A DNA stretch of 64,000 bases, taken from Candidatus Sumerlaeaceae bacterium (GTDB lineage: Bacteria > Sumerlaeota > Sumerlaeia > Sumerlaeales > Sumerlaeaceae). The translations under genes and the position numbers were made by a program. Of this stretch, positions 7,770 to 58,415 are shown piece after piece (position 1 is the stretch's first letter; each line of letters starts with the position of its first letter). The stretch covers positions 32,874 to 96,873 of the forward strand of contig JAOAAY010000004.1 in NCBI GenBank assembly GCA_026418615.1, read 5' to 3'. Below the pieces are notes generated by a model, which saw only the letters and a list, made by a program, of their open reading frames with translations, had not been told where the DNA came from and made no database searches.

Positions 7770-7812
7770 GGGGCGGGTCCGCCGGGTGCGGGCCCGCCCC
7801 GATTTGTTTGTT
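7770..7812. terminator. bidirectional rho-independent terminator between convergent genes
   Basis: GGGGCGGG...CCCGCCCC inverted repeat (7770-7800) is followed by GATTTGTTTGTTGT. It sits between the + strand gene ending at 7741 and the - strand ALDH ending at 7817. Confidence 0.5.
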
Positions 7813-7816
7813 GTGC

Positions 7817-9265: not shown

Positions 9266-9279
9266 GGCTGCGCGGCGCG

Positions 9280-9819: not shown

Positions 9820-10116
9820 GAGCGGCCTCCGGGAATGTGATGGGCGGGTCCGGTCGCGACCGCGCGCAACAGCGCACCCCAATGGTGTTGAGCCGTCCGG
9901 CTGTTTGCACCGGCGGCCAGGGCGTTGGATCAGCGCGTTTCGTGGTCACCTGATTCGCGGCACCCGCCTAATCGTAGAAGAGTCTGTCCCTCTTCGTCCC
10001 TCATCTGCAACCCCAAACGGGATGGCGAAACAATTGCGGCACGATTATCGGTCCCAATGGACTGTTTGTTTCTCGCGTGTCGAGGTGTCGGACAAACTGT
10101 TCAGGGGTTCATTGAG

Positions 10117-13100: not shown

Positions 13101-13602
13101 GCGTGCCCGCGTCCGCGAAGGGCGCCAGTATCTCATCCGTTGGCATGTGACCAGCACTCAGTTGTCCAACCGAAACGCTGGTCTTCGGCTGCGCGGCCGG
13201 ACAGCGAAGTTTGCCTGGTCGCAAAAACTCGAACTGGGCGGCGCTTGGGCCACCGGCAGCGGCCTCAATGCCAACAATAGCATTGCCCAGCAGTTGCTGC
13301 CCGGTATCGGATGTCAGAATCCCAGCAAAATTGATAACGAGAACGGCGGCTGGTACAACATGTTTATGCATACGCCCATGAGCGTGGACATCCGACCGGA
13401 TGTCGCGGGTGTCTTGAGCGACCGCATGCCAAACCTTTCGGCGCAGCCGGGGCCGGGCGCAAATGCTGCCTCGCGCCGCGACCTGCTGCTCGGCGCTGAC
13501 CTCGTGGACTCGATCTCCGGCGGAACTAATGCGGGTCTTGAACGCGGCAACTTCACCGTGGATCGCATAGATGTGTACGATTACCCGCTGGTGGATGACT
13601 GA
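10117..13602 (+). CDS. large secreted beta-propeller (SBBP) repeat protein
   Basis: Signal peptide MKHCFLVPVWLFVCAGLTLSAA. More than 12 tandem copies of the SBBP unit [YSTYLGGSGxDxGxGIAVDxxGxxYVTGxTxSxNFP] (e.g. TGSSNFPVSG, TRSSNFPLEK, TNSDNFPTVS). 1161 aa. Confidence 0.75.
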   Translation: MKHCFLVPVWLFVCAGLTLSAARSEPATHTAQTAVALWEQLPLAFEPNVGQAPPDALFVSRGKGYAVSLCRDAILVGLERRPRTDRSMRSRLTSAGPDITTAGVAIRFSGVAPDVSFHPAERLPGVAHYYYGRDAGTWHTHVPRYARVEARGLYPGIDLAVYGNPLELEFDLVVAPGADPHAAALEVTGGECRLQPDGSLSIATAAGALILHAPVAYQIADGGQRRIPAEFVLAEASRVSFRVGEYDKTLPLVIDPVLSYSTYIGGSGTDEVHAIAVDASGRVYVTGSTTGSFPTKTGSYDVSFNGVSDVFITKLNPTAGSGSAALVFSTYLGGSGEDEGNGIVVDSSGRPVVCGVTASNNFPSTKLFGPQGGRDAFIVRLNSTGSAISYAVIAGGTANDFASGIALDASGNAYITGLTGSSNFPVSGSLQPYRGAGDAYVLKYRPTSNDLGYSTFVGGTLFDEGIAIAVDADGGAIITGDTDSTNFPLQEAFQTVLGGTTDAFLTRVRSDASRLSYSTFLGGTGFDIGYAVAVDAGFNPVVTGETRSSNFPLEKEYDSTYAGGPGDAFVTRFGNGGDELLFSTYLGGSGVDRGLGVAYGRDGSVFVAGETNSDNFPTVSAYSNSRAGSFDPFLTRFASGGKTLIYSTYAGGTGDDKPFGLALDSFGRAWLGGATTGGFPTAGSPYQSTYGGNTDGFISLLAPTVRTFQQDVFTSANIQPPGSATGWSVLASNPGLADADYSAALKALRGVIAPDASRFRIAGWISNASEWLPYAQIGTSRFVRAKYYLFTGGQSNPSLLNTIPNLRVRTSLRFAQNSMLEVFHHANGDPANATLARELRPSSDPTRPSLYRVDMDPVDVPYLAANSAVEGVLRAMEAYALDPQDNGYIAMSESIIGSYAATALPSGVDPVQSYNTSDAGAGSLAVVNPATELDLYCLILGTLPGEFGTRDPDPATTKPSYWENSAGVTLDATSVATDRVGIGSREFNPGASQTARARVREGRQYLIRWHVTSTQLSNRNAGLRLRGRTAKFAWSQKLELGGAWATGSGLNANNSIAQQLLPGIGCQNPSKIDNENGGWYNMFMHTPMSVDIRPDVAGVLSDRMPNLSAQPGPGANAASRRDLLLGADLVDSISGGTNAGLERGNFTVDRIDVYDYPLVDD

Positions 13603-30721: not shown

Positions 30722-33700
30722 ATGAGGCAATTCGTACGGATTTCTGCGTGGGCGGCTGCAGTGGCTGTTGGGATGTTGGCGGGGTTGTCAGCGGGCGCGA
30801 GGCCCGCTCAAGGGCCGGATGCGGCGCCCAAAACCGTTCGCGTGGAGGTGCTCGACGCTTCCGGCAAACCGGCCAGAGGGGCCGAGGTCGCTCTGGTGAC
30901 GCTCAGGTTCGGGCGGTTTGACGGCTGGCGAGAGGCCCCGGACGGCAAGGCCGAATTGGCAATCCCATCCGACCAGAACAGATTTGGGCTTGAGGAGTCC
31001 GCACAAGAGGAGATCGCAGCGCGGGCACCCGGCCACGCGCCTGCCACGGTCAAGTGGAATCCCGAAAGCGGTTCGTCAGCCACGGTGCGGCTCAAACGCG
31101 GCAAGCGCGTCAATTTAGAAATCAAAACCGCTGATGGCCGGCCGTTGCCGGAAGGAGTTCTACCCGTCGTTTTTGCGCCAAAGACTCGCATGCAAGTGTT
31201 GAGGCCCTTAGTATCCGCCTTCGGCACCACTTCGGGACCACTGTTCCATTATTATCGTGTCGAACAACGCGCACCGGGCCGTTTCAGTGTCATGGTCTCA
31301 CCGGAAGACGGGCCGTTGACTGTTTATGTGGACTGTCCCGGTCTGCTGCGCGGATTTGTGAGCGAGGCATTTGAGCCCAAAGCGTGGGACAAGCCGCTCA
31401 TCGTTCAACTGCCCGCGGCCGGGACGGTCGTCGCCACCTTCGAGCCCAAGCCCGCCATCCGCACCGACCTGACGACTTTCATCGTCAGCCTGCGGGGGAA
31501 GGATCCGATGCCGGCCTTTTACGATCTCGCCGCCGTGGTGTCGGGCGCCGGGCAGCCGCGACGCGCGGTGTTCCCGGATCTTGCCCCCGGACAATACGAT
31601 ATTCTGGCCGAGACCGGAACTGGATGGGTGAAGCGGGCATGGGCTGGTCCGGAAACAGTTGCCGTCCAGGGCGGCTCCTCGGCCACGGTTGCTCTCAAGC
31701 AACGGCCAGCCTTACCGGCGTTGCGGGTGACCGACGCGGCGACCACCGGCCGCCCCGTGAGGGCATCCGCATTTGTGATTCGCAAACAGCGTGACTTATT
31801 CCTGCTGACGGGCACGGGCTGGGTCCCTGTTGGGCCTGACGGCCGCATCCGCTTTGACATGAACCAATTTGCCCCCCGCGACCCATGCGAGGACGCGAGT
31901 CCGTGGGAGTATCCGGTACTGGTCAAGGCACCCGGATTTGCTCCGAAAACCTTGACGCTTCGTACCTCGACTGTCGCCACGACGGAGGTCATTGTCCCTC
32001 TTGAACGCGGCAATCCGATCGAAATTGTTCTCGAACCGCCCGAAGGGATGTCCATTCCGGAAGACCTCATCCCCGCCGTGTGGTTTCCACCTTTTGGTCC
32101 GATCCTCGGCTTGATACCCTATACGACGAGCCTGCAGGAGGTTTGGGCACAATCGCCGGTGCTCGATACGGAAAGGATCGCGCCGGGACGCTACAGGGTC
32201 CGCATCACCACGGGCACAGAACAGTTGGTGGTCGGCGTTCACCACTCAAGGTTCCTGCGTGGATTTGTGTCGGATGTTTTCTCTCTTCAGGATCTCTCGG
32301 GCAGCCCGCTTGTGCTCCGGCTGCCCAAACCCGGCGGCCTTGAGGTCACCGCAGATGTGCGCGAATACTTAAAAACACCGGGACCCAAACCGGATTCCAT
32401 TGAACTGACCATGATGCCCGCTGAGGCGGGTGACCGCATGCCCATCAACGCCTTGGGCTGGCAACGCAGACTTGGCCTACAAGACGGAATAGCCTCTTAC
32501 CAGGCGGCAGATCTGGCCCCCGGGCGCTATGAGGTTTTCATCACGGCGGCTTTTGACGCGGGTGACGACCAGCGCAAAACATTGAGCGGCAATTCCGAGT
32601 TGAAAGTTGAGTCCGGCACGACAGCCACCGCAACGATCGCCCTGTCCGACACCACCAGCCGTCGCGGTCCCCGGCAATTTGCTTTGCCTGAGGTTCGCGT
32701 CCTCAGCGCGACCGGCAAACCCGTGACCAATGCCCGGGTCTTTGCTCGCCGGGTTGGCGACGAGATGAATGTCACGCGGGGTGAGGCGGCCGGCGACGGC
32801 CGTTACCAATGCAAGCCATTGGTTGCATGGTCCATGACAACGGGGGAACCGTTGACCTCGGCCACGGCGGAATTGCTCGTCACCGCACCGGGTCACACCG
32901 CAACGACCATGACGCTTGAGGTGCCGACCCGCCAAAATCTGATCACGGTGCGACTGAAAAAAGGTCGCGAGGTGGAGTTGCGCCTCAACCCTGCCGAGGG
33001 AACTTCCATCCCGGAGACCCTTGAGCCGATCATCTGCGACGAGACGATGCTAGGCGCTGCATGGATCGGGCTTTCACCCGACTCGGCAGACAAAGGGTTT
33101 TCTCTGGCCAGTGTCACGCGGACCGGCACTGGACGCTACACTTTCCAAGTCGCCAAGGAGACAAGCGGACTCTATGTGCTGATCCACGAGCCCGGCTTCC
33201 TGCGAGGATTTCAAGCAGGCCCCTTCGGGGCGGACCAAGTGGCCAAAGGGCGCATTGAAGTGGACTTGCCGAAACCGGTGACGCTGACCGCACGGTTCCG
33301 TCCTGCGAAGCCCGACACCCCTGCCACTTATACAGCGTGCTGGGCCGCGATTGACCGCCTCGTGATGCTGCCCGGGGAGAGATTCATGTACATGAAGATC
33401 GCCCAAACCGAAGCGGCCGGCACGACGCTCGAAGCACAGTTCTCCGATCTCGCGCCCCTCGACTTGAGGGGCCGGTATAGCGTCGAGGCTGGTACAGGGC
33501 GTTTATCCGAGCGGTTTGGGCCGCCTGGACAATCCTACAGCGACCGCGCCGAGGCGGACTTCCAGGACGGCACCAGTGCCACAGTTGAAATCCTTTACGA
33601 GCCCTTCGACCGCGACATGCTCAAAGGACCGTACACGGCTGTTGTGACGGTGCTCGGGCGAGACGACAAACCTTTGGATGGAAAGCCGTTCCGCGTCACT

Positions 33701-34423
33701 TATTACGACCGCAAATTCGGCCCCCACACCGTCGCTCAGGGAACCATTCCGTCATCGGGTGTCGTGGAATTGCGCGGACTGGCCGGCGGCGTGGACAAAC
33801 CGACCTCTTTGAGCGAATTTCGCGGGAAATTTCCACCAACTTATACTTTTACCATCGGCGACGAGGATATTGGCTCCATCCAATTCGTCAAATTCGACCG
33901 CCAGAGCGGGCTGGTATTGCCGGCACATACCGATCAGGTGGCCGAATTCACTTTCCGGATGCCGCCGGTCGTCGGCGATATGGCACCGGATATCGAATTG
34001 ACCGAAGTTTTCGGCGACGGGACGCTGCGTCTCTCCGATCTGAGGGGACAGGTCGTTTTCCTCGATTTCTGGGCCACATGGTGCGGCCCGTGTCAGGATC
34101 CCATGAAGGCGCTCAACGAACTGGCTGCCAAACACAAGGATGACTGGGCAGGGAAGGTCGCGCTGATCGGGGCCAGCATTGACGACAACAAGGCTACGGT
34201 GCAGAAACATGTGAAAAAGAAAGGCTGGGAGAGCGTGCGCCAAATGTGGTGCGCCGTGCCGGATGGCTCAGGCGGCTGGGAAGCCCCGCAAGTGCGCACC
34301 TACGGCGTTCGCGGCGTGCCCACCGCCCTCCTCATTGATCAGCAGGGCCGCATCGTCTGGCGGGGGCATCCGGCCGGATTCAACAAAGAGGGCGAAATCA
34401 CACGGCTGCTGCAAAGCAAGTAA
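30722..34423 (+). CDS. giant secreted protein: three carboxypeptidase-regulatory-like/beta-sandwich repeat modules fused to a C-terminal TlpA/ResA-like thioredoxin domain
   Basis: Signal peptide MRQFVRISAWAAAVAVGMLAGLSAGA. Repeated modules containing VRVEVLDASGKPARGAEVAL-type starts and PGLLRGFVSEAF / SRFLRGFVSDVF / PGFLRGFQAGPF. C-terminal LRGQVVFLDFWATWCGPCQ thioredoxin-fold active site. Confidence 0.8.
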   Translation: MRQFVRISAWAAAVAVGMLAGLSAGARPAQGPDAAPKTVRVEVLDASGKPARGAEVALVTLRFGRFDGWREAPDGKAELAIPSDQNRFGLEESAQEEIAARAPGHAPATVKWNPESGSSATVRLKRGKRVNLEIKTADGRPLPEGVLPVVFAPKTRMQVLRPLVSAFGTTSGPLFHYYRVEQRAPGRFSVMVSPEDGPLTVYVDCPGLLRGFVSEAFEPKAWDKPLIVQLPAAGTVVATFEPKPAIRTDLTTFIVSLRGKDPMPAFYDLAAVVSGAGQPRRAVFPDLAPGQYDILAETGTGWVKRAWAGPETVAVQGGSSATVALKQRPALPALRVTDAATTGRPVRASAFVIRKQRDLFLLTGTGWVPVGPDGRIRFDMNQFAPRDPCEDASPWEYPVLVKAPGFAPKTLTLRTSTVATTEVIVPLERGNPIEIVLEPPEGMSIPEDLIPAVWFPPFGPILGLIPYTTSLQEVWAQSPVLDTERIAPGRYRVRITTGTEQLVVGVHHSRFLRGFVSDVFSLQDLSGSPLVLRLPKPGGLEVTADVREYLKTPGPKPDSIELTMMPAEAGDRMPINALGWQRRLGLQDGIASYQAADLAPGRYEVFITAAFDAGDDQRKTLSGNSELKVESGTTATATIALSDTTSRRGPRQFALPEVRVLSATGKPVTNARVFARRVGDEMNVTRGEAAGDGRYQCKPLVAWSMTTGEPLTSATAELLVTAPGHTATTMTLEVPTRQNLITVRLKKGREVELRLNPAEGTSIPETLEPIICDETMLGAAWIGLSPDSADKGFSLASVTRTGTGRYTFQVAKETSGLYVLIHEPGFLRGFQAGPFGADQVAKGRIEVDLPKPVTLTARFRPAKPDTPATYTACWAAIDRLVMLPGERFMYMKIAQTEAAGTTLEAQFSDLAPLDLRGRYSVEAGTGRLSERFGPPGQSYSDRAEADFQDGTSATVEILYEPFDRDMLKGPYTAVVTVLGRDDKPLDGKPFRVTYYDRKFGPHTVAQGTIPSSGVVELRGLAGGVDKPTSLSEFRGKFPPTYTFTIGDEDIGSIQFVKFDRQSGLVLPAHTDQVAEFTFRMPPVVGDMAPDIELTEVFGDGTLRLSDLRGQVVFLDFWATWCGPCQDPMKALNELAAKHKDDWAGKVALIGASIDDNKATVQKHVKKKGWESVRQMWCAVPDGSGGWEAPQVRTYGVRGVPTALLIDQQGRIVWRGHPAGFNKEGEITRLLQSK

Positions 34424-34449
34424 ACATCTTGATCAAGGGGGTAGAGACC

Positions 34450-36384
34450 ATGCGAAAGTCTCACAGAAACCTGCTGCTGGCCGCGCTGGCGACACTCGCG
34501 ATCCTGACGATCGCACCAGTCGCCGACGCCAATGAGCCTTCGGGTGACCCATCGGCTCAGGTTCACCCGTTGCTCGCCCACATGCCAGAACGGTTCAGAC
34601 GGACGGCGGAAGTCGTCCCAATGTACGCTCCGCCGCTGATGGTTGTTGCCGCTGATGACGGGTTGCCGGTCACCAGCGCCTCGCTGGCGCTCATGTCCGA
34701 CTCCGGTCCGTTCGAAAACACTTCGGCGACACATGAAGGCAGGGGGCGCTACCGGTTCGCTCCGCTGGAACAGATCCGGTCCAAATCGAGGACGATGACC
34801 ACACAGTCCCTCTCCTTGTTAGTCACGGCACCAGGGTTCGTGCCGGAGACGACCTCGATCGTGCTCAATGAAAGGGCGCCCCTGCCGGGCGAGATGACTG
34901 TCCGCCTCGGCCGGGGGCGTCCCGTCACGCTGGAGATCACCCGCGAGGACGGGCAGCCGCTGCCCCAAACCTTGGAACCCATCATAGCCGACCGGGACAC
35001 GCTGGAGGCCATTTGGTGCACGCTCGGATGGCAGACCGGCCCCTTGCGTTTTGGTTTGTATCCCGTGCGGCGCATGGCCCCGAACCGCTGGGAGTTTGGC
35101 GCCAAACCCGGGCAGCATGAGGTTTTTGTGATCGTGGACGAACCGGGGCTGTTGCGGCACTTCGTGGCCGGGCCGTTGAATGTGGAGGACGGCACAACGG
35201 CCTCCCTCATAGTGCGCCTGCCGAAGGCTTGTGCAATCACCGCACGGTTTCGCCCCGCGGAGGGTGTCGCCCGGCCAGCCTACCGCCGATGCACACTGGC
35301 GGTGACGCGCTCTGTCGATGTGCCGGGCGGCAAACCATCAAACTACGGAACCACCGTGGCCTCGTTCACTGGCGAAGGACCCACGGTAGAGCATGTGTTT
35401 GACGATCTGGCCCCGCCCACGGACGACTCTGGCTACTGGGTGCAAGCCATGACAGATCCGCACCCCGCTGAAGGGCTCGACGGGAAATACGCTTTCTCCG
35501 GCGGCGATTCCCCGGATTTTGGCAACGGGACCTCAGCCACCGTGGAAATCCTGTACAAGCCACTCAGCATTCGTCAGGTGCAGGGCGGGCTGACGGCCGT
35601 CGTCCGGGTGACGAATGCAAAAGGCGAGCCGGCAGCCGGCAAACCGTTTGAACTCCTGTGGCACCCCCGCAACTATCCCGAGGTTACGCTGACCTCGGGC
35701 ACCATCCCGACATCCGGGGTTGTGGAATTTCCGGGTTTGGGGGGCGCACCGGAAAAAGTCATGACAATAGCCGAAGCCCAAAAATCCGGATGGGAGCCAG
35801 CCCATCTGGAGTTTGTCCTCGACGGGGAAAGCGCGGGAATGATACGGTTTTTCCAGGTGGATGAGAAGGCGGGCGTTGTCCGGCCGGCGGTTGATGACAA
35901 CCGGCGCGTGTTCGAGTTTCGAGTTCCGCTGCGACCGGGCGACGAGACGCCAGATATCGAGTTGACTGACCTCGCAGACGGCCGGGTGTTCCGGCTCTCC
36001 GATTTGCGCGACCAGGTGATCTATCTCGATTTCTGGGCGACCTGGTGCGGGCCCTGCCAGCGACCTATGCATGAACTGGACGATCTCGCCCGACGCCGCG
36101 CGGCCGAATGGACGGGCAAGGTGTCGCTCATCGGGGTGAGCATAGACGAGACGACAGAGGTCGTCGTGCGGCATCTGGAGAAAAACGGTTGGACTGCGGC
36201 ACGGCAGGCTTGGTGCCATCCGGTTTCCGGCTCGACAGGCCGTGCGTCGGCGCAGGTCAAAGCCTTTCAAGTGACGGGATACCCGACGGCGTTTCTTATC
36301 GGCGCAGACGGAAAACTGATTTGGACGGGGTATCCCGGCCCCGAAATTGAAAGCATCATTGAGAAGGCCCTCGGCAGCCGCTGA
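34450..36384 (+). CDS. secreted paralog of upstream gene: one repeat module plus TlpA-like thioredoxin domain
   Basis: Signal peptide MRKSHRNLLLAALATLAILTIAPVADA. EPGLLRHFVAGPL and GTSATVEILYKP repeat the upstream protein, and LRDQVIYLDFWATWCGPCQ is the active site. The gene sits 26 nt downstream of the preceding gene, and an RBS AAGGGGG precedes the ATG. Confidence 0.8.
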   Translation: MRKSHRNLLLAALATLAILTIAPVADANEPSGDPSAQVHPLLAHMPERFRRTAEVVPMYAPPLMVVAADDGLPVTSASLALMSDSGPFENTSATHEGRGRYRFAPLEQIRSKSRTMTTQSLSLLVTAPGFVPETTSIVLNERAPLPGEMTVRLGRGRPVTLEITREDGQPLPQTLEPIIADRDTLEAIWCTLGWQTGPLRFGLYPVRRMAPNRWEFGAKPGQHEVFVIVDEPGLLRHFVAGPLNVEDGTTASLIVRLPKACAITARFRPAEGVARPAYRRCTLAVTRSVDVPGGKPSNYGTTVASFTGEGPTVEHVFDDLAPPTDDSGYWVQAMTDPHPAEGLDGKYAFSGGDSPDFGNGTSATVEILYKPLSIRQVQGGLTAVVRVTNAKGEPAAGKPFELLWHPRNYPEVTLTSGTIPTSGVVEFPGLGGAPEKVMTIAEAQKSGWEPAHLEFVLDGESAGMIRFFQVDEKAGVVRPAVDDNRRVFEFRVPLRPGDETPDIELTDLADGRVFRLSDLRDQVIYLDFWATWCGPCQRPMHELDDLARRRAAEWTGKVSLIGVSIDETTEVVVRHLEKNGWTAARQAWCHPVSGSTGRASAQVKAFQVTGYPTAFLIGADGKLIWTGYPGPEIESIIEKALGSR

Positions 36385-41664: not shown

Positions 41665-42723
41665 TCAGTAGGCGCCGTACTGCCGGGCAAGGCTGAGGGC
41701 GCGCCGGTACTGGTCATAACTGACATTGGGCGGCACGCTGTGGTCGCTGTGAAAGATGTAGCCACCATGGCGCTTGGCGGCTTCCAATTTGGGAATAATC
41801 TCGCGCTCGAGAGCGGCCGGGTCCGGGTCGGCCATGGCGCGCGTGTCAATGTTGCCCATGAACGACAGACAGTCGCCATACTGGTTGACGAGTTGGCACA
41901 CATCCATGCCGGCCTTGACCTCGAGTGGCTGGAGGCAATCCACGCCAGCCTCGATCAGGTGGGGTATGAGCAGGTGGATATCCCCGTCGGTATGATAGAT
42001 GACCGGCGCGCCGCGCGCGTGGTGAAAAGAGCACAGCGCGCGGTCAGACTCCAGGATGGTCTCGCGGTAGAGTTTCGGCGAGAACAGCGGGCCGTTGCGG
42101 TAGGCCATGTCGTTGAAAAACCATGCCGCGTCAGGCTCGAAGCCCGCGGCAATCACCATTTCCGTCATCCTGAGGGTCAACTCGGCGACCGTCTCGACCA
42201 TCTCGCGGAACCAGCGCGGGTTCTCGATCATGATGACGAGCAGTTCCTCGGTCTTGATAAGGTTTTGCAGGTAATCAAAACCGATGACGGCGTTGAGAGT
42301 GACGCATTTGCCCTCGGAGCGGGCACGCTGGTAGCGGCTGCGCAGCGTGACCCAATCGCAGCGCGTGTAGTCGGGCTGGAGGCGCTCCTTCACACGCAGC
42401 CAGTCATCATAAGTTTTGACGCCCCAGTCAATGATTTCGGGTGTGCTGGCCAAAGAGCGCAAGTTGCGCCGGACGCCGCCGAAAGGCGTGGTCTCGACTA
42501 CATATTGGTCGTCGGCGTGAAGGGTTTTGATTTCGAACATCGGGGAGTTGTCAAACCAGATGCTGACGATCTCCCAACCGAAATGGTCTTCGGGGGAAAT
42601 CCCGGCCGGGTATCCCTCGCGTTCCCAACGGCGCATCGTCTCGACCCACACAGAATCGTGGATGGGGACGCGATCGGCCTTGTCGCGCCTGAGTGCCCTC
42701 AATACGCGTTCGCGGCTATCCAC
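41665..42723 (-). CDS. uroporphyrinogen decarboxylase (URO-D) family protein, MtaA-like paralog 3
   Basis: 352 aa, URO-D family composition (…VIYHTDGDIHLLIPHLIEAGVDCLQPLE…GYIFHSDHSVPPNVSYDQY…). Co-linear similarity with the ORF at 29336. Confidence 0.7.
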   Translation of the reverse strand: MDSRERVLRALRRDKADRVPIHDSVWVETMRRWEREGYPAGISPEDHFGWEIVSIWFDNSPMFEIKTLHADDQYVVETTPFGGVRRNLRSLASTPEIIDWGVKTYDDWLRVKERLQPDYTRCDWVTLRSRYQRARSEGKCVTLNAVIGFDYLQNLIKTEELLVIMIENPRWFREMVETVAELTLRMTEMVIAAGFEPDAAWFFNDMAYRNGPLFSPKLYRETILESDRALCSFHHARGAPVIYHTDGDIHLLIPHLIEAGVDCLQPLEVKAGMDVCQLVNQYGDCLSFMGNIDTRAMADPDPAALEREIIPKLEAAKRHGGYIFHSDHSVPPNVSYDQYRRALSLARQYGAY

Positions 42724-42735
42724 GGCAGTCAGGCA

Positions 42736-43755
42736 TCAGGCGCTGCGCTGCGCGAGTGTTCGTTCGATTTCCTGCAACCGCTCCCACGAAAGCAGTTCGC
42801 CATACTCGATGGCGTCCTTGAACCGGTTGAGGTCGAGGTGCATCAGGGCCCATTCCTTGTTGGTGTCATGAGCGACGATGGCACCGATCTCGTCAGTGGT
42901 CCAATAGACGGCCTCCCACACATGGCCGCCGATTCGGATGCGCAGCACGCGGCCGCGCTCGAGCGTATCCCGCGGTTCGAGCCGGCGGTGGTAGTGCGCG
43001 GGCGCAGGCTCGCGCTGAGCCTCCGGCTGTTCGGGAGCAGCGGCTGGTGCGGGCGGTGGAGTGTAGGCGGGCCTTGGTCGCGGGGGAGTGCGCTGCTCGA
43101 GCGCGCGCACCTTGGCGATATGCTCGTAACCGTCGAGGTGAAAGATGACCACATCGCGATCCCAGCGTCCCTGCGCGATCATGTCGGCAAATGCCTCGCG
43201 CGAGAGTTGGCCGATGCGCATCTTGTCGTACTGCTCGAGGAAGATGCCGCGCGGGGCTACCGTGCCGTCGGGCTCGAGGAAGTAAAACAAGGCATAATCC
43301 TTGCCGCTGACGGCATCCTTGTAAATGGCGAGGCTACCATCGTCGAAACACATGATGGTACCCATCTGCAAATCGTCGCCGGCGGGAGAAGCCGCGGGTC
43401 GGCGCGGGGGCGGCGCCGAGGCAGGAGCCGGTGGCGGTTGGGGGGGCTTAGCCCGGCGGGACGCCTGTGCCCGGGGCGAATCGTCCCAGTCGGTCTCGTC
43501 CAATTCGCTGACGGGCTTAGCCTCGACCTCCTCATCGTACTGCGAGGGCTGGCGTTGCGATTGCTTCAATTTGTCATAAAACGCTTTGTAACGGGGGTCG
43601 TCCTGATACGACCGCCGGTCACCCCGCGGATTATCCTCTGGCTTGCCTGGTTTGCGTTTCACTTCAGGGAGTCCTACCTCACCCGTAGCCTGCTCTCTCG
43701 CAACAGCGTACTTCCAGTCCTCCGCCCTGTCTGACGAACTGAGAGGACGGGACAC
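42736..43755 (-). CDS. hypothetical Pro-rich protein
   Basis: 339 aa with an acidic/basic low-complexity N-terminus, Pro-rich linkers (PPQPPPAPASAPPPRRP; PPRPRPAYTPPPAPAAAP), and two ~90-aa globular segments. The first ~300 nt have locally lower GC. Confidence 0.45.
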   Translation of the reverse strand: MSRPLSSSDRAEDWKYAVAREQATGEVGLPEVKRKPGKPEDNPRGDRRSYQDDPRYKAFYDKLKQSQRQPSQYDEEVEAKPVSELDETDWDDSPRAQASRRAKPPQPPPAPASAPPPRRPAASPAGDDLQMGTIMCFDDGSLAIYKDAVSGKDYALFYFLEPDGTVAPRGIFLEQYDKMRIGQLSREAFADMIAQGRWDRDVVIFHLDGYEHIAKVRALEQRTPPRPRPAYTPPPAPAAAPEQPEAQREPAPAHYHRRLEPRDTLERGRVLRIRIGGHVWEAVYWTTDEIGAIVAHDTNKEWALMHLDLNRFKDAIEYGELLSWERLQEIERTLAQRSA

Positions 43756-48453: not shown

Positions 48454-51144
48454 TTAGGTCGCCTGGCGAGTCTTGCGCCGTTTGGGCGCTTTTTTCGGAC
48501 CGGCAGCCGCCTTCGCCGCGATCAATTCCGCCGCCTGCTCGGCAGTCAGAGTTTCCGAATTTGTCGTTTTGGGCAGCGTAGCGTTGACCTTGCCGTCGGT
48601 GACATAGGGGCCGTAGCGTCCCTCCATCAGTTTGATCCCGCCGGGAAACTCCTTGATAGATTTCTGCGCCGCGGCCCGCCGTCCGCGCGGTGCCTTGGGC
48701 GCTGCGAGGAGTTCCAGAGCCCGCTCGAGCGTCACCGTGTAAGGACTCTCGCCCGCCGGTAGCGAACGGAACTCTTGGCCGTGCTGGACATACGGACCCC
48801 ACCGGCCTTTGTTGGCCAGGACCGGTTCGCCCGACTCAGGATGGCGACCCAGTTCCCGCGGCAGGCTCAGCAATTGCAAAGCCTGCTCGAGGGTGATGGT
48901 CTCCGCCGTCATGCCCGGCTCGAGACTGGCGCGGCGCGGCTTAGGCGCCTTGCGGTCACCTTTGGCCGGGTTGTCGCCCACTTGCACATACGCCCCGTAT
49001 CGGCCTGACAAGACATAAACTGGAAGCCCGGTCGCGGGATCCTCGCCGAGGCGCCGAGGCCCCTCGGCCTTCTGCCGGATCAGTTCGAGCGCAGACTCGA
49101 GGTTGAAGTCCGCGGGGGCCACCTCCGGCGGAATGTCCGCGAGGGTTCCGTTGCCATTGTCGCCGACCACCACATACGGGCCGTACTTGCCCACTCGGAT
49201 CCGAACAGGCTGGGAAGTTACCGAGTCCACCCCCAGCACGATCTCCGGCCGCTCGATTTCCTGCTGCTTCGTCTCGACAAGCGTTTCGAGGCCCGGCTCG
49301 TCCGGCGTGCCGCGATAAAATTCCCGGATGTGCTCCACCCACGACAGATCGCCGTTGGCGATGTTGTCGAGTTCCTCCTCCATGCGCGCCGTGAAGCGCA
49401 GGTCCACATAATGCGGAAAATGCTCGCGCAGCAATTGCGTCACCGTCATGGCCGTGAAGGTCGGCACGAGTTGGCGCGACTTGTTGAGGAAGACATAGCC
49501 GCGGTCCTGAATCGTGCTGATGATTGAAGCGTAGGTGGAGGGGCGGCCGATGCCCTCCTCCTCGAGTTTTTTCACCAGCGAGGCTTCCGTATAACGCGGC
49601 GGCGGGGTGGTTTCGTGCCGCTTCGCCGCAACTCCGACCAGCCACGCTTCATTGGTCGCGCGCGCCTGAGACTCGTCGCTGTAAACTTTTTCGCCCACCT
49701 TGAGGTCGGGAAGAATGACCTCTTTGTCGCCGAGGTCGGCGGCCGGATCGTCGCTGCCCTCCACATAGGCCCGGAGGAAACCCGGAAAAAGGATTTTTTT
49801 TCCAGACGCGGTAAACACGGCCGCGCCTGTCGCACCGCCCGTCTCGGCGGTCAACTCCACGGTCGTCCGCAGCAGCCGCGCGTCGGGCATCTGGCTGGCC
49901 ACGGTGCGCTTCCAAATGAGATCGTACAGCGCCAGGTCCTCGCGGCTCAGAAACGGAGCGACATCGCTGGGCCGGCGGCTGATTTCCGTGGGCCGGATGG
50001 CCTCGTGCGCCTCCTGCGCGTTGGCGGTCTTGGTGCGGTATTGGCGCGGGCTGCAGGCATACTCGGGGCCGTAAATATCCGCGATGACCCGCTGCGCCTC
50101 GCCCAAGGCTTTGTTGGAAAGCGTCACGGAGTCCGTGCGCATGTAGGTGATGAGCCCCACCCGCTCGCCGTCGCCGAGGTCTACGCCCTCGTATAATTTC
50201 TGCGCAATCTGCATGGTGCGCTTTGCGCCAAAGCCAAGTTTGCGGTTGGCCTCCTGCTGGAGTGTGGAGGTCGTGAACGGCGGATTGGGCCGCTGGGTGG
50301 TCGGCGTTTCCTCCACGCGCGTCACGGTCCACGGCAGCGCGCCGCGCACCGCCCCGCAAAGGTCGCCCGCCGCTTCCGCCTCGAGCAAGTAGGTCCGGCT
50401 GCCCTCGCTCAGGCGCCCCGTCGAGGGGTCAAAGTCTTTGCCGGTCGCCAGCCGCTGCCCCCCGAGCGACACCAGTGTCGCCTTGAATGACCCGCCCGCC
50501 GTGGCCACTTCCGCCTCGAGGTCCCAGTACTCCGCGCTGCGGAAGCGCGCCCGCTCCTCCTCGCGCTCGGCAATCAGCCGCACGGCGACACTCTGCACGC
50601 GGCCGGCACTCAGACCCGGCTGCACCTTGCGCCAAAGCAGCGGGGAAAGTTTGTAACCAAACAACCGGTCCAGCACGCGCCGGCCCTCCTGAGCGCGCAC
50701 GAGATTCTCGTCAATCTCGCGCGGCGACCGAAGCGCTTCTTCAATGGCCTCGCGCGTAATCTCGTGAAACACAATCCGCCGCACGGGCACCTTCGGCTTG
50801 AGCACCTCGCACAAATGCCAACTGATTGATTCGCCCTCGCGATCCTCGTCGGTCGCCAGCAGCAGTTCCTTCGCCTCCTTGAGCGCCGATTTCAGGTGCG
50901 CGATGTGCCGTTTCTTGTCAGGAGGAATAACATAAACCGGTTGAAACTGGTCGTCAATGTTCACCGCAAAGTCGGCCCACGGCTGCGATTTGTACTCCGC
51001 CGGCAGTTCCTTGCGGCTCGACGGGAGGTCGCGCACATGGCCGTACGAGGCCTCGACCCGGTAATCCTTCCCGAGAAACCGGCTGATGGTCTTGGCTTTG
51101 GCAGGCGACTCGACAATGACGAGAGAAGTCAAAACGCTGGGCAC
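48454..51144 (-). CDS. topA: DNA topoisomerase I
   Basis: Toprim N-terminus LVIVESPAKAKTISRFLGKDYRVEASYGHVRDLP, an active-site Tyr region, and four C-terminal GRYGPYV-type repeats with no Cys. The tail is Lys-rich (KAPKRRKTRQAT). Confidence 0.92.
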   Translation of the reverse strand: MPSVLTSLVIVESPAKAKTISRFLGKDYRVEASYGHVRDLPSSRKELPAEYKSQPWADFAVNIDDQFQPVYVIPPDKKRHIAHLKSALKEAKELLLATDEDREGESISWHLCEVLKPKVPVRRIVFHEITREAIEEALRSPREIDENLVRAQEGRRVLDRLFGYKLSPLLWRKVQPGLSAGRVQSVAVRLIAEREEERARFRSAEYWDLEAEVATAGGSFKATLVSLGGQRLATGKDFDPSTGRLSEGSRTYLLEAEAAGDLCGAVRGALPWTVTRVEETPTTQRPNPPFTTSTLQQEANRKLGFGAKRTMQIAQKLYEGVDLGDGERVGLITYMRTDSVTLSNKALGEAQRVIADIYGPEYACSPRQYRTKTANAQEAHEAIRPTEISRRPSDVAPFLSREDLALYDLIWKRTVASQMPDARLLRTTVELTAETGGATGAAVFTASGKKILFPGFLRAYVEGSDDPAADLGDKEVILPDLKVGEKVYSDESQARATNEAWLVGVAAKRHETTPPPRYTEASLVKKLEEEGIGRPSTYASIISTIQDRGYVFLNKSRQLVPTFTAMTVTQLLREHFPHYVDLRFTARMEEELDNIANGDLSWVEHIREFYRGTPDEPGLETLVETKQQEIERPEIVLGVDSVTSQPVRIRVGKYGPYVVVGDNGNGTLADIPPEVAPADFNLESALELIRQKAEGPRRLGEDPATGLPVYVLSGRYGAYVQVGDNPAKGDRKAPKPRRASLEPGMTAETITLEQALQLLSLPRELGRHPESGEPVLANKGRWGPYVQHGQEFRSLPAGESPYTVTLERALELLAAPKAPRGRRAAAQKSIKEFPGGIKLMEGRYGPYVTDGKVNATLPKTTNSETLTAEQAAELIAAKAAAGPKKAPKRRKTRQAT

Positions 51145-52605: not shown

Positions 52606-53472
52606 CTGCTCAAACTGGGGCTGCCCAAGGGCAGCCTGCAGGACTCGACCATCGAATTGTTCCGACGCGCAGGGTTCAAATTCACCGTCGGAACCCGATC
52701 CTACAGCGTCGCCTGCGACGACCCCGAGATCAACGCCACCCTGATCCGCGCTCAGGAAATGTCGCGCTATGTCGAGGACGGCGTCTTCGACCTCGGCCTC
52801 ACAGGTCTCGATTGGATCGTCGAGAACCGCTCGAAGGTCGCCGAAGTGGCCGACCTCATCTACGCCAAACAGAGTATGCAACCCGTCCGCTGGGTGCTGG
52901 CCGTGCCCGAGTCCAGCCCCTTTCGCAGCGTCAAAGACCTGCGCGGCAAACGCATCGCCACCGAGGTCGTCAATATCACCACCGACTACCTCAAGCGCCA
53001 CCGCGTCAACGCCCATGTGGAGTTCTCTTGGGGCGCCACCGAGGCCAAGGCCCCCGACCTCGTGGACGCCATCGTCGAGGTCACCGAGACCGGCAGCAGT
53101 CTGCGCGCTAACAAGTACCGCATCCTCGACACCGTGCTTGAGAGTTGGACGAAACTCATCGCCAACCCCCGTTCGCTGCGCGACCCGTGGAAGCGCAAGA
53201 AAATCGAAAATATCGCCATGCTCCTCAAAGCCGCCATCGAGGCCGGCGGAAAAGTGGGCCTGAAAATGAACATCGCCCGGGACAAACTGCCCGGCCTGCT
53301 GCGCATGCTCCCAGCCCTCACCTCGCCCACCGTCTCGAGCCTCTCCGACGAGCGCTTCGTCGCCATCGAAACCGTCATTGACGAAACCCTCGTCAAACAA
53401 CTCATCCCCGACTTCAAACGCGCCGGCGCTACAGGCATCATCGAGTACCCGCTGAACAAAATCATCTACTGA
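52606..53472 (+). CDS. hisG: ATP phosphoribosyltransferase, long form
   Basis: The conserved N-terminus [24 protein letters not shown] is encoded before the first ATG/GTG/TTG. The in-frame CTG at 52606 gives (M)[10 protein letters not shown]. The catalytic domain and C-terminal regulatory domain are present, 288 aa from the CTG. Confidence 0.8.
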
Positions 53473-53538
53473 GCGGGATGACATACTCGAACTCCCGCCG
53501 CTCGAAGCGCAGATCGTCCAGCGGCCCGGTGCCGCCCG

Positions 53539-53964
53539 TCATGGCGCTTCGAGGCTTGCCTTGAGTTCCTGAACGATTGGCATGACCGCGTCCGGGGCAA
53601 GGGACTTGAAAGGCGCCTGTCCGGCGAACACTTCGGGAACTCCCGGCAATACCATGGCGCGTTCAACCAAGTGTCGCGTCGAGCCGGAGGATTCATCGTC
53701 ACCTCTGGCCATCGACAGCACAACAAGGCGGGCTGGACGAGCGACAGGGTCTCGTCCTGGCTCGCTATCAACCCACTCATATCGGGCCTCGCGGGGCACT
53801 ATGAAACCGTCCGCGGCCAGCGTACCGCTGGTAGTAATCGACAAGCGGACATTACCGGAAAGGCTGGTAAACTCCCCGCTGGACAAGATACGATTACTCT
53901 GAATTGTTAGGCTGAGGCTGCCCTTCAATGCCTTTGAGTACACACCGGCCTCGTCGGAATCCAC
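53539..53964 (-). CDS. hypothetical protein
   Basis: 141 aa ORF in a lower-GC islet, co-directional with the two upstream secreted-protein genes. No motif recognised. Confidence 0.3.
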   Translation of the reverse strand: MDSDEAGVYSKALKGSLSLTIQSNRILSSGEFTSLSGNVRLSITTSGTLAADGFIVPREARYEWVDSEPGRDPVARPARLVVLSMARGDDESSGSTRHLVERAMVLPGVPEVFAGQAPFKSLAPDAVMPIVQELKASLEAP

Positions 53965-54018
53965 GAACAGCGTGCCTCTATGATCACGCGAAACCCGTGT
54001 GTGCGATGTAAGGGATGC

Positions 54019-54594
54019 CTAGGCAAGGAAGCCGCCTAGAATCATATCACGGAAGCCGCTGAATTCCATGTGCGAGTCGCCGGGCGGATCGTTTGCAACA
54101 AACAGGGACTCTGTGTAGCCGCAAGGCTCTTCGGAGGCTGAAACGCAGTGCTTTCGTAGCAGCGTGACAGAACGACCGATACCTGCTACCCGCGAAGCGA
54201 ACCTTGCGACCGGTCTCGGATGATACGCATTGCCCTCCGGCACATTGCCGGGAAAGTAAGACGCGACGGCCGCCCGTCGCGACGGAGTGGTGTCGTAGTC
54301 ATAGGCCGCCGCGAGCCAATAGTCGTCGCCCTTCCATGTTAGGCGGACCCGCCGTGTTTGCATGCCTGTGACAGGGGGAGGGGTATCTACAGTCTCTAAG
54401 TCACGAAGCACGAACAGGGATTCGCACGCAGACGACCCGTCTGGGTGAATCCGATCCTCAATAGCCTGCATCACCTCGTTGAGTTCGCTGGGTGCGGCGG
54501 AAACCGGCATAACACCCGTGTACAGGAGAAACCACGACACGGCAGTCACAACATGTAAACGGGAGCGCATGTCATCTACTTTTCGCTTAAACAT
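54019..54594 (-). CDS. hypothetical secreted protein
   Basis: ORF with an internal Met start MFKRKVDDMRSRLHVVTAVSWFLLYTGVMPVSAAPSE (signal peptide). Downstream of the Cys-rich repeat protein gene. Confidence 0.4.
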   Translation of the reverse strand: MFKRKVDDMRSRLHVVTAVSWFLLYTGVMPVSAAPSELNEVMQAIEDRIHPDGSSACESLFVLRDLETVDTPPPVTGMQTRRVRLTWKGDDYWLAAAYDYDTTPSRRAAVASYFPGNVPEGNAYHPRPVARFASRVAGIGRSVTLLRKHCVSASEEPCGYTESLFVANDPPGDSHMEFSGFRDMILGGFLA

Positions 54595-54650
54595 GGAATT
54601 AGGCCTCCAAACTTGAAGTAGGGTCCACCAACCAGGTTGACGGACGGGCA

Positions 54651-55442
54651 TTAATGAATAAGACAGGTTCCATAGATCATCTGTGCAGTACACGGACCGG
54701 GCGATCCACCCGAACAGCCACTATAGTATGTATCAATCATGCTGTACGAGACCGTTGTCCCGCCGTTACCACTGCAGGCGCTATTGCGATAGACATATTG
54801 CACCGCCAGTTCCGCGTTTTCGTGTGCGGCCAATGTGCTTGCATACAGATCAACGGTGCCGTCCGGGTTGGTGGCACACGACGCCGAAAAGTACGAGGTG
54901 ACAGAACACTTGATTGTGTCGCATGGCGAGCCTTCGTTGATGTTTCCGCCAAGTTCCCCGTGATAGCACTCATGCACAGTGACCGATACGGAATGGCCGC
55001 TACTATAGCACCGGTAACACGACATGTCCGCGGGGTCCAATAGGCAACACTCGTTCTTTGGAATGATCGTATCAATGCAGCACTTGTGAGTCTGCAGTGA
55101 GAACAACAGACCTGCACAGCAGTCTTGTGTTGCCAAATTGTATACGGTGCCACCGCAGCATCCCTGTGTGGCTTTGTTGAAAACCACTCCAAGGCAGCAT
55201 CCTTGTGTGCTTGGATCGAATGGGACTCCGTTGCAGCAACTGCCAATGCAAGGGGTCGGAGTAACGGGAGGATCAGCGCCGATTCCCATCCGGGGTGCGG
55301 GTATGGCTTCCGCCGCGCAGGAGCGCCCGCCGCCATGCTGCTTTGAACTCACGGGAAACGACAGGGCCAACAGCAGTGCGAGAGTCAGTGCCAGAAGCAC
55401 GAGGTTCTGTGCGGATGAAGATGCGTGTTTCATTGCGTGCAC
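54651..55442 (-). CDS. secreted cysteine-rich protein with tandem 13-aa CC-x-G-x-x-F-x-x-x-T-Q-G repeats
   Basis: Signal peptide MKHASSSAQNLVLLALTLALLLALSFPVSS. Repeats CCNGVPFDPSTQG / CCLGVVFNKATQG / CCGGTVYNLATQD / CCAGLLFSLQTHK / CCIDTIIPKNE are also visible as DNA-level repeats near 55030-55250. 27 Cys in total. Confidence 0.55.
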   Translation of the reverse strand: MHAMKHASSSAQNLVLLALTLALLLALSFPVSSKQHGGGRSCAAEAIPAPRMGIGADPPVTPTPCIGSCCNGVPFDPSTQGCCLGVVFNKATQGCCGGTVYNLATQDCCAGLLFSLQTHKCCIDTIIPKNECCLLDPADMSCYRCYSSGHSVSVTVHECYHGELGGNINEGSPCDTIKCSVTSYFSASCATNPDGTVDLYASTLAAHENAELAVQYVYRNSACSGNGGTTVSYSMIDTYYSGCSGGSPGPCTAQMIYGTCLIH

Positions 55443-55915
55443 TCCTCCCGCGGTGACCGATTGACTGGCGGTGCCGGTGGCACATAGCGGTGCAGGCTTG
55501 GGTGGTCACGAAAGATCTCACGCATCTCCGCATGCAGCGCAGATGTGAAATCCCTGCCAAGATCGAAATGGTAGGCCACGCTGTTCTTCCATCCGTAGGC
55601 CTTCCACAGGGCATCCCGGTCCGGGTCGCCCTGGATGGGCCTGCCGACCTTGCGCGCGACGAAGACGGCCGCCTTAGGGCCGTGCGAAGGACACAATCAC
55701 GGGGGGGAGACAAACCATTTAAGATCTCCCATGCGGTGCTGCTTCTGCAGGGCGCAAATACCACACAACCGGAAACAAACCCGTCCACAACCGGCCGGTG
55801 CTGTCACGACATAACGACAATCGCAAATCACTCTGCGCTAACAGGCCGTCGGCACGCTGGAATGGCTGGTCGCTTGGGCAGATCCAGTGCCTACCAGATG
55901 TAACATATGGATCGC

Positions 55916-56686
55916 TTATTGAGGTTTGAGGCCAATAAACAGGTAATAGGGCACGCGGGCAAGAGGGAGGTAGGGCACAGCGGCGCGGTTTTCAAGGAGG
56001 CTCACCGGCTCAAAGCGTCGCAGCAGATAAGGCAGGTGGTCGGGCGACGGGAACACATTGTCGCCGCCAAACCACGCAGGCCAGAAGTGGCGCGTGAGCC
56101 AGCCGTGACGGGCCATGCCGGGAGCGGCTGGATGCTTGCGCGAGACATAAAAGTCTACCACGCCGATGTGTCCGCCCGGTCGCAGCACGCGCCACGCATG
56201 ATCAACCGCGGCGAACCAGTCCGGAATCATCGTGAGCGAGTAACTAAAGGTGACGACATCCGCCGCCCCTTCGGCAGGAACAAACTCGGTGGCGTCGGCC
56301 TCCACGGCTTCCACATGGGTCCAGCCGCGCTGCGCGATGCGTCGGCGCGCAATGGCTAGCAGCGACGGGGCGAGATCCACGATGTAGAATTTCCTCAGTG
56401 CGCCGATGCGCTCGCCGAGTCGCTCCGCATTGGCCCCCGTGCCGCCGCCGAGATCCAGCCACACCCCACCCGCGGGCACCGGTAGAGCCGCCCACAGTTC
56501 GTCACGCCCGCGCAACAGGCGCTCGCGAAATGTGTCGTAACCCTCGGCCTGTCCGCGGTAAAAGTTGTCCAGTCTTTCCGCGTGGGTTGCCCCCCGGATG
56601 GGATGCAAGGCGAGGTGATAAAGAATGCGGAGGTCTGAAATTAGTCCCACGGGTCGGAACCTCCCTCCGCCCCGGCATGGAGCCAA
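55916..56686 (-). CDS. class I SAM-dependent methyltransferase (BtaB-like candidate)
   Basis: Motif I VWLDLGGGTGANAERL and motif post-II PGGHIGVVDFYVS. It lies 242 bp downstream of the DUF3419-like gene on the same strand. Confidence 0.65.
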   Translation of the reverse strand: MAPCRGGGRFRPVGLISDLRILYHLALHPIRGATHAERLDNFYRGQAEGYDTFRERLLRGRDELWAALPVPAGGVWLDLGGGTGANAERLGERIGALRKFYIVDLAPSLLAIARRRIAQRGWTHVEAVEADATEFVPAEGAADVVTFSYSLTMIPDWFAAVDHAWRVLRPGGHIGVVDFYVSRKHPAAPGMARHGWLTRHFWPAWFGGDNVFPSPDHLPYLLRRFEPVSLLENRAAVPYLPLARVPYYLFIGLKPQ

Positions 56687-56928: not shown

Positions 56929-58125
56929 TCACGCCGTCGCGAGGTCGGCGATATAGAAACTGCCGTAGGTGTGGACCCGGTCGCGGGCGTGGAGGTTGGC
57001 AGCAAGGTCGTGATGATAGGTGAGCAGTTCGCCAACCTGAGCCTCGCCGCGCGCCGTGCGAACGCGCAGCGGATCCACAAAGTCCACGCGCAAGGCCCCG
57101 CTGCGCCAGATGACGCGCGCGCCCGGAGCAGCGCGCCGGACGATGGCCTGCCATTCGCCCTGCAACAGATGTCGGCCGCGCGTGCTAAGCCAGTCCATGT
57201 GGTCCAGCAGCACGAACCGCGAGACCTGGATCTCGTTCTGCTCGAGGAAGCCCTGCACGGTATTGGTGTGGACGCTTATGCGCCCGCCGAGGCCGGCCTT
57301 CAGTCGGGCAAAGCCCTCGGCCGTCAGGTACTCCGGGCAGCAGTCGCGCGTGTAGTGACCGGTCAGGTACACGCGCCAGAAATAATTATCTTGGAACGGC
57401 AGCCGCGCAAAGACGGCCTCGACGCATTCCTCGATGAAATGCACGATGCCGCCGTAGTGGCGTTCAACCTGCTGGATCTGGGGACGGGGGACACCGACGA
57501 GCGAAAGCGTGGTGCCGCGGCCCATAAGCCAGCGCATGAAGCGCGTCCAGAACGCATCGCGCAGGACGGTGTCGTAAATCTCGCGCTGCTCGTCCACGGT
57601 TTGGGCGGCCATGAGTGCGTCAATGCCCGGCCGGATGCGCGCCACTCGGTCTATGTAAAAGTTCATCAGCCGCGCGAACAGCCCCGTCGTACCGTGGAAA
57701 TAAAAACCCTTTCCGCGGCTGTCGACCCCAAAGTACCGGATCTTGCGGTCCCAATACTCGCGCGCTGCGGGGGGCAGGTCGGCGCGAATCCGCGACCGGT
57801 ACAGGGCGCGCCCCTCGTCGAGGCGCCCTTCGCCGAACATCCGGAAAAACTCGTCGTAGTCGAGTGTTCGGATGGCCGCCAGTTTCAGTTCGAGCAGCGC
57901 GTTCTGGCGCGGGTTCATGTCCACGGCAAACACATGGCTCGGGCCGCACAACGCGTAGTCGAGGGCGTTGCAGCCAGCCGAGGTGATGACAAGCACCGTG
58001 TCCTCGGGGCCGAGATCCAGCGCCACGCGGTCGAGCCGCGGATCTTCCCAGCAAGTGTTGTAAACCAAATTATTACCGTGGACAAGCCGGAATCCCTGTC
58101 CGCCGAGCCAGTCTAAAAACGACAT
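56929..58125 (-). CDS. DUF3419-like protein (candidate BtaA, S-adenosylmethionine:diacylglycerol 3-amino-3-carboxypropyltransferase)
   Basis: 399 aa from the Met at 58125 (a GGAG RBS lies upstream). N-terminal region [40 protein letters not shown] and C-terminal LLDHMDWL resemble the BtaA/DUF3419 family as I recall it. The assignment is an inference. Confidence 0.5.
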
Positions 58126-58415
58126 GCACTGCTCCGGGTGCGTGAACTGTGATGCTGGTACAGCCGGCGCCCCCCACCCATGAAGTGACGCGCTGGCGCC
58201 CATGTGGCACATCGCCCCCACCGGACGCAACGGGGAAGAACGGTTGACCCGCCCGCGCCGCGGCGGCAAGGGTGGCCGCGTGGTGACGCCAATTTCCCCA
58301 TGCGGACACAAAGACGCCAGACGCCACGGCGGAGCCGGAGTTCCATGCGCCGGCCCCCTTGTCCCGGCGTCTCTTGGCCTCGGCGGAAAGCAGCCCTGTC
58401 ACGGAGGCAGCGCCT

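Follow-up and report, generated by a model that had tools for sequence, protein, structure and literature searches.

In the 64,000-nucleotide stretch of Candidatus Sumerlaeaceae bacterium contig JAOAAY010000004.1 that was analysed (the window), an islet extending over about 53523-55900 carries an intact gene for a Cys-rich protein with tandem CC doublets, accompanied by the remains of two further genes. The islet is bordered on one side by hisG (52657-53472, plus strand; Pfam HisG plus HisG_C) and on the other by a methyltransferase gene (55916-56686) paired with a DUF3419 gene (56929-58311), and all its relevant open reading frames (ORFs) are on the minus strand between these flanks. In the order of their reading they are gene 1, of which an 88-codon remnant ORF persists (55430-55696), gene 2, which is intact and encodes the 260-residue Cys-rich protein (54651-55433, the TAA stop codon being at 54651-54653), and gene 3, which is split by a stop codon. 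The window was compared with a metagenomic contig, L001, in which genes for proteins of 395, 285 and 357 amino acids have the same order as the cassette in the window and whose positions 953-3118 align to window 55670-53523 with 85% identity. Set beside it, the cassette reads as one intact gene and two damaged ones, instead of the three orphan genes seen in a preliminary description of this DNA.

The galaxin-type protein of gene 2

The longest reading of the Cys-rich ORF starts with a GTG and gives 263 amino acids (54651-55442), and it was in this form that the protein was first described. The likelier start is the ATG at 55433, which is at the same position as in relatives, overlaps the stop codon of the preceding ORF (ATGA) and has a GGAGG Shine-Dalgarno sequence 8-9 nts 5′ of it. 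The product has 24 Cys in total. Its first 54 residues (55272-55433) are a leader with a Sec-type signal peptide and a conserved pro-region that ends in GADP. The signal peptide, judged by inspection only, is at about residues 1-30, and the N-terminus, MKHASSSAQN-LVLLALTLALLLAL-SFPVSS, has charged, hydrophobic and cleavage regions as in a Sec signal. The protein is very probably secreted, as had been proposed, and disulfide-bonded. Its ortholog on L001 (P0001) is 84% identical and runs 25 residues further, having CAA where gene 2 stops at TAA.

Following the leader, residues 62-139 (55017-55250) form a galaxin-like dicysteine repeat region in which six CC doublets, at residues 66, 79, 92, 105, 118 and 129, are bordered by single Cys at 62 and 139. 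The doublets are thus 13, 13, 13, 13 and 11 residues apart, and what had been reported as five to six perfect 13-residue repeats is four exact units of that length followed by shorter ones of 11 and 10 residues. This is the arrangement of galaxin-like proteins, the dicysteines of which are typically 10-15 residues apart with single cysteines at the borders (PMC12419799). The repeat had also been thought obvious in the DNA. Both 18-mers quoted for it are present, at 55155 and 55194 (39 bp apart; 0.02 expected by chance), but Tandem Repeats Finder calls no DNA-level array in the islet, because the repeat DNA is too diverged.

Contrary to the initial view that none of these proteins has recognisable homology, the repeat region passes the Pfam profile PF24748 (Galaxin_repeat): residues 68-133 align to profile positions 58-129 with 45.9 bits against a gathering cut-off of 28 (E = 6.7e-12), and P0001 is likewise precomputed as PF24748. 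AlphaFold2, given a 17-sequence alignment, models residues 61-135 as successive beta-hairpins at a predicted local distance difference test score (pLDDT) of 86-98, with eight paired strands in residues 77-125; fold searches retrieved no comparable solved structure. In the published models of galaxin and calcarins each CC doublet opens a short hairpin that is disulfide-linked to the preceding one (PMC12419799), and the hairpins predicted here agree with those models. By analogy, every CC doublet of the stalk would be tied by disulfides to the hairpin next to it, so that a ladder would result in which the pairs would be C62-C66, C67-C79, C80-C92, C93-C105, C106-C118, C119-C129 and C130-C139. Taken with the profile match, the gene 2 protein can be assigned as a bacterial member of the known galaxin repeat family, with a novel architecture; the family is best known from corals, and bacterial members have rarely been noted. 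The metal-binding role that had been mooted is disfavoured by the signal peptide, by membership of a family in which the CC doublets are modelled as a disulfide ladder between hairpins (PMC12419799) and by the beta-hairpin prediction at pLDDT 86-98, and a metallothionein-like reading of the protein was rejected. Of the other early suggestion, a disulfide-knotted surface or toxin-like protein, the disulfide bonding is very probable but no toxin family was detected.

The remainder of the protein, residues 139-260 (54654-55019), is an orphan Cys-rich C-terminal domain of 122 amino acids with 10 Cys (the head). A HMMER search with it against 1.84 billion representative proteins found P0001 as the only credible homolog; two other matches in that search were compositionally biased repeat proteins and were set aside.

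The relatives of the repeat are of interest for its origin. The nearest matches are bacterial or metagenomic proteins of 49-51% identity, and a Mytilus protein comes behind them at 36%. Because the closest relatives are bacterial or metagenomic, nothing points to recent animal-to-bacterium transfer, and recent transfer from a eukaryote was rejected. The family, PANTHER PTHR34490, is recorded in animals, other eukaryotes and archaea, with bacteria not mentioned (PMC12419799), and no paper dealing with galaxin-like proteins of bacteria turned up in searches of the literature. In P0004, whose context is clearly bacterial, the repeat is N-terminal to a phospholipase A2, in P0005 it is N-terminal to a Fib_succ_major domain, and about 30 small repeat-only proteins are in the databases (including MDR2440759.1 from a Planctomycetaceae metagenome-assembled genome (MAG)).

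A small galaxin-like gene is directly 3′ of a gene for a MauE-family (PF07291) membrane protein in L093 (546-1939), L094 (1065-2311) and L095 (976-2207), the first two being unrelated long bacterial contigs and the third a short contig with an identical protein. This suggests that the MauE-family neighbour is a dedicated oxidative-folding partner of bacterial galaxin-like proteins. [DUF1573/HYDIN-Ig genes are near the L093 pair, and likewise adjoin the phospholipase A2 fusion in L006. A 394-amino-acid gene also adjoins that fusion; it was considered as a relative of the 395-amino-acid protein of gene 1 and found to be unrelated.]

Membership of the galaxin-like family raises the question of whether the gene 2 protein is a structural, adhesive or matrix protein like the animal galaxins, having no effector role, with the diversity of its cassettes amounting to surface variation. 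Many of the small bacterial homologs, which have little beyond an N-terminal hydrophobic segment and the repeats, would suit such a function, as would the two that come directly after MauE-family genes and so suggest dedicated oxidative folding of envelope proteins. However, the bacterial repeat is joined to unrelated heads (phospholipase A2, Fib_succ_major and the orphan domain), which fits a generic stalk better, the repeats here are six and short against 10-23 dicysteines in the galaxin-like sponge calcarins (PMC12419799), and nothing ties the host to mineralisation. A purely structural role is, on balance, rather improbable.

The damaged genes and their intact relatives

The fragmentary ORF upstream of gene 2 had been suspected of being a gene remnant, and this is correct. 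While its first ~13 codons are former intergenic sequence, its last ~76 codons encode the C-terminus of a secreted TPR-like protein of 395 amino acids, matching residues 310-394 of the L001 protein with 80% identity (by tblastn and alignment). What removed the rest can be seen by alignment to another contig, L090. There the methyltransferase gene, present with its 3′ end, is separated by a 420-bp spacer from an intact 395-amino-acid gene, after which the leader starts and the contig ends. Upstream of a junction near 55655-55660 the window aligns to L090 465-~520, and downstream of it to L090 ~1600 onward; with the ~1.06-1.08 kb lost went ~316 codons from the start of the TPR-like gene, together with the adjoining end of the upstream region. 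Retained 5′ of the junction is a conserved non-coding block (55708-55837) that is 72-77% identical to L090 ~254-400, where it is in the spacer that separates the methyltransferase gene from the intact TPR gene, and it is possibly a promoter or leader region. Rfam gives no match in the islet, this block included, and no promoter or terminator credible above chance was found there. [The ~130-bp block recurs at L003 3752-3882, after the cassette of that contig and a DUF4096 (insertion sequence-like) ORF, at the contig end; a second, tandem cassette may follow.]

The complete gene 1 protein has a signal peptide and a confident all-alpha model (pLDDT 82) that matches generic TPR scaffolds, among them LGN/Pins, kinesin light chain, PilF and BamD. 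In one database entry (P0006) the source names the protein “ribosomal protein L17”; the all-alpha, TPR-like model and the absence of a match to a ribosomal family point to a mis-annotation.

Gene 3 follows gene 2. Its N-terminal part of 191 codons (54019-54594), with a signal-peptide-like N-terminus, ends in an in-frame TAG at 54019-54021, and tblastn with the 357-amino-acid protein of L001 identifies a continuation in the same frame, of 159 codons plus stop (53539-54018), for a total of ~351 codons. A single alignment of the L001 protein spans window 54594-53542 with 79% identity, passing across the TAG, at which the L001 homolog reads through as GFVVRAS. The ORFs of 190 and 141 amino acids (the latter 53539-53964) that had been counted as two of three genes are therefore one gene with an in-frame TAG. 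DNA homology to L001 ends at window 53523.

The L001 cassette is one of several. In L003 and L004/L005 the 395-amino-acid gene is nearly identical and the gene 2 protein begins with the same 54 residues; for L003 and L004 the 92% identity in the DNA stops at window 55270, just past GADP. Past the leader, L003 and L004/L005 encode different Cys/Pro-rich payloads (P0002 and P0003), the leader being the only part of the gene 2 protein that is common to these two. The secreted proteins encoded downstream in the variants are mutually unrelated, each of the three payloads having a downstream gene of its own, and the junction is at window 55270. The head of P0003 resembles that of the window protein no more than marginally (29% identity in a BLASTP match with E = 0.012; hhalign probability 1.2%). 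In every variant the proportion of guanine plus cytosine (GC) at third codon positions (GC3) is 0.81-0.86 in gene 1 and 0.49-0.63 in the payloads and third genes. Distant homologs of gene 1 are also followed by Cys-rich reading frames: P0008, which has an N-terminal SPOR domain, by a called gene for a secreted Cys/Pro-rich protein, and P0007 by an uncalled Cys-rich ORF. At the contig level, L092 and L091 have a Cys-rich ORF after gene 1, the one in L091 being uncalled. A metagenome scan with an alignment of the TPR protein retrieved no contig beyond the relatives already in the comparison.

[In two of these contigs sequencing adapter is, or seems to be, taken for coding sequence, and both stretches were ignored. 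L001 3244-3312 is Nextera adapter at the DNA level (CTGTCTCTTATACACATCT...), where a short spurious gene had been called, and the translation of L005 ends in ~20 residues (...ISEPTRLLSISYAVFCLK) that look, from the translation only, like translated adapter.]

A constant 5′ region, behind which both the payload and the downstream gene vary, with a sharp fall of GC3 at the junction in all variants, is the layout that would be expected of a strict polymorphic toxin/immunity cassette. Gene 2 would then specify a secreted toxin, directed against bacteria or eukaryotes, whose head is exchangeable, and gene 3 its cognate periplasmic immunity protein. Rhs elements have a GC-rich core and AT-rich tips, which the GC3 switch of the cassette resembles, and in another bacterium a phospholipase A2 is joined to a galaxin-like stalk. 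P0002 has, by inspection only, a HEDQH (HExxH-like) motif, though this could be chance. However, no toxin or immunity family was found in any variant with Pfam, NCBIfam, PADLOC and PHROGs (window, P0002 and P0003 heads), the partners have 240-357 amino acids and signal peptides, no secretion-system genes are nearby, nor were orphan immunity genes seen in arrays. This strict toxin/immunity explanation, a narrower and functional form of the one favoured below, is accordingly doubtful.

Base composition and history of the locus

That the islet is lower in GC than its surroundings, as first described, is confirmed. GC is 0.578 at 53480-55900 compared with 0.625 for the whole window, and no other 2.4-kb stretch of the window is as low (mean 0.626, standard deviation 0.017). 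GC3 is 0.59 in the repeat gene and ~0.625 in both downstream ORFs, compared with 0.69-0.83 in a reference set of 12 Pfam-supported genes, and no part of the window departs further in tetranucleotide composition than 53401-53801 (z about 4-4.8). The GC of the gene 1 remnant is an ordinary 0.629, and the atypical composition is confined to the gene 2 payload and gene 3. The preliminary description had staked its case on two observations, a composition distinguishable from the flanks and a repeat protein outside any common annotated family. The first holds for GC, GC3 and tetranucleotides alike; as to the second, the repeat is in a curated family, but that family is not common in bacteria.

The low GC of the islet is a systematic property of the variable module. 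Low GC3 of payload and gene 3 in all variants points to a swappable or fast-turnover module and not to a one-off insertion. Because L090 has the cassette at the same locus, the cassette in the window is at an inherited locus and is no recent private insertion; the identity to L090 is 85% in the flank and 90% in the cassette, and this similarity also argues against recent private insertion. Of the suggestion of a horizontally acquired cassette, the atypical composition therefore stands, but the locus is shared with L090 and the signatures of mobility that were sought (flanking direct repeats, an integrase or a nearby tRNA) were not found. The only tRNA in the window is at 39260, there are no meaningful flanking repeats and there is no transposase homology in the window.

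TopA (48454-51144) is 63-67% identical to its counterparts in Candidatus Sumerlaeota/Sumerlaeia MAGs, which no other entry in a set of 185,579 species genomes matched better, and by this the host is placed as Sumerlaeota-like. Those nearest Sumerlaeota genomes have no synteny around topA and so provide no corresponding site to compare as an empty one, and the Cys-rich protein of the window was not found in the GTDB species genomes.

Between the window and L001 the ratio of nonsynonymous to synonymous substitution rates (dN/dS) is 0.18 for gene 2 as a whole, 0.19 for its repeats and 0.13 for its head (with a dS of 0.91), compared with 0.33 for gene 3 (0.40 in its distal half) and 0.41 for the gene 1 remnant. 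On these values gene 2 is a real gene, under purifying selection over most of the divergence; the ratio averages over the entire divergence and is blind to recent inactivation, which may have occurred. [The dS in the comparison with L001 is uneven along gene 2, rising from 0.15 (leader) through 0.38 (repeats) to 0.91 (head, 54654-55019), and a mosaic recombination history within the payload may be responsible.]

The same values bear on whether the window copy is a dead remnant in which the gene 2 ORF is intact by chance. Deletion of gene 1 to its last ~76 codons, the in-frame TAG in gene 3, the TAA in gene 2 that is 25 residues before the end of its ortholog and the higher dN/dS of the gene 1 remnant (0.41) and distal gene 3 (0.40) would all be in keeping with this. 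It is nevertheless very unlikely in view of the 260-codon ORF that gene 2 keeps, its good Shine-Dalgarno sequence, its dN/dS of 0.13-0.19 and the retention of most of the upstream non-coding block.

Some other features of the window may be noted. DUF3419 is the BtaA-type family, so that the earlier “btaAB-like” label for the pair at 55916-56686 and 56929-58311, which was tested at the Pfam level only, is reasonable. Two adjacent plus-strand genes, at 30722-34423 and 34429-36384, encode proteins of 1233 and 651 amino acids in which the sole Pfam match is a C-terminal AhpC/TSA-redoxin/thioredoxin domain, the N-terminal ~1000 and ~500 residues being without one. A 1225-amino-acid protein with DUF7948 and SBBP beta-propeller repeats is encoded at 9925-13602 (plus strand). 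Putative genes at 41740-43734 (664 amino acids) and 7808-9685 (625 amino acids), both on the plus strand, have no Pfam family at E <= 1e-5, and both overlap opposite-strand ORFs of 339-482 amino acids.

A proposed modular cassette and the systems it resembles

The explanation favoured here, with moderate confidence, is that the islet holds, in partly decayed form, a three-gene cassette specific to the lineage of a Sumerlaeota-like bacterium, in which gene 2 encodes a modular exported protein and the payload and its partner vary. The gene 2 protein has four modules: a putative signal peptide, a short conserved pro-region, a stalk of galaxin-type beta-hairpins and the 122-residue orphan Cys-rich head. 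The leader would drive export, and the TPR partner may recognise it as well. As for the stalk, it would be a rigid, protease-resistant spacer, and the head an extracytoplasmic binding or effector module for which the gene 3 product would be the matched partner, a layout resembling that of a polymorphic effector with its cognate protein. Gene 1, by its predicted fold a secreted all-alpha TPR-like protein, is nearly constant together with the leader of gene 2, the rest differing between variants. In the window copy gene 1 is cut to its last ~76 codons and gene 3 has a premature stop, with gene 2 intact but 25 codons shorter at its end than the ortholog.

Several observations weigh against this explanation. 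Only three payload/partner combinations are available, all on short metagenomic contigs of 1.3-3.9 kb, and L001 and L005 are from one sample with nearly equal coverages of 4.56 and 4.48, as would fit paralogous cassettes, two to a genome, or else alleles of different strains. The repeat is the only match of the cassette in Pfam, and for no cassette protein did NCBIfam, PADLOC, PHROGs or PDB sequences give a credible match, so that homology speaks for no effector or immunity activity. The head could not be modelled (AlphaFold2 pLDDT below 50), and fold searches found nothing. The downstream partners, being secreted and of 240-357 amino acids, are unlike typical small immunity proteins. Finally, the window copy may be non-functional.

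A bolder and tentative extension of the favoured explanation, for which the chances look low, is that the Sumerlaeota relatives have a new polymorphic effector/partner system, built on an undescribed family of modular, disulfide-rich effectors exported by Sec. In it a dedicated periplasmic TPR protein would recognise the ~25-residue pro-region that the effectors share. Stalks (galaxin-like or of TPCP-repeat type) would be exchanged independently of the heads, and every head would be accompanied by a secreted partner of its own. If so, galaxin-type disulfide ladders would be an ancient stalk module found across domains of life and not an animal invention.

Galaxin-type dicysteine ladders have been discussed almost wholly as animal biomineralisation or immunity proteins. 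The window adds evidence, from a candidate phylum without a cultured model, that bacteria use the galaxin repeat as an N-terminal stalk for unrelated heads. The cassette would also provide a testable handle on export, folding and diversification, since its TPR gene and leader are constant while the low-GC3 payloads, each with a matched partner, are exchangeable. For annotation, the point to be drawn is that low GC here flags a variable module at an inherited locus and not a recent insertion.

Of the known systems, the polymorphic toxins of the Rhs and contact-dependent inhibition (CDI) type share with the cassette an upstream part that is constant, an abrupt change to a C-terminal payload and downstream gene that vary, and a lower GC in the variable part. 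They differ in that the constant part of the cassette is a separate TPR-like gene plus a Sec leader of 54 residues only. The cassette is without Rhs, YD, haemagglutinin or pre-toxin domains and without recognised toxin or immunity families, and its partners are large and secreted.

With the galaxins (PF24748/PTHR34490; coral galaxin, squid galaxin and the sponge calcarins) the protein itself has more in common. Like them it has CC doublets 10-15 residues apart and a predicted stack of short beta-hairpins, it is above the curated Pfam cut-off, and it is very probably secreted. In contrast to them it has a Sumerlaeota-like bacterial host and an operon-like cassette, six doublets only and a fused 122-residue orphan Cys-rich domain. 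Closest are the other bacterial galaxin-repeat proteins. P0004, P0005 and MDR2440759.1 share with gene 2 the motif CCxGxxY(D/N)xxTQG and an N-terminal signal or anchor, and in P0004 and P0005 the repeat region is, as in gene 2, placed N-terminal to a variable head. Their heads are different ones, none of these proteins being functionally characterised, and the neighbourhoods differ too, with MauE and DUF1573 genes beside other bacterial repeat proteins whereas gene 2 is beside a TPR gene and the gene for a secreted partner.

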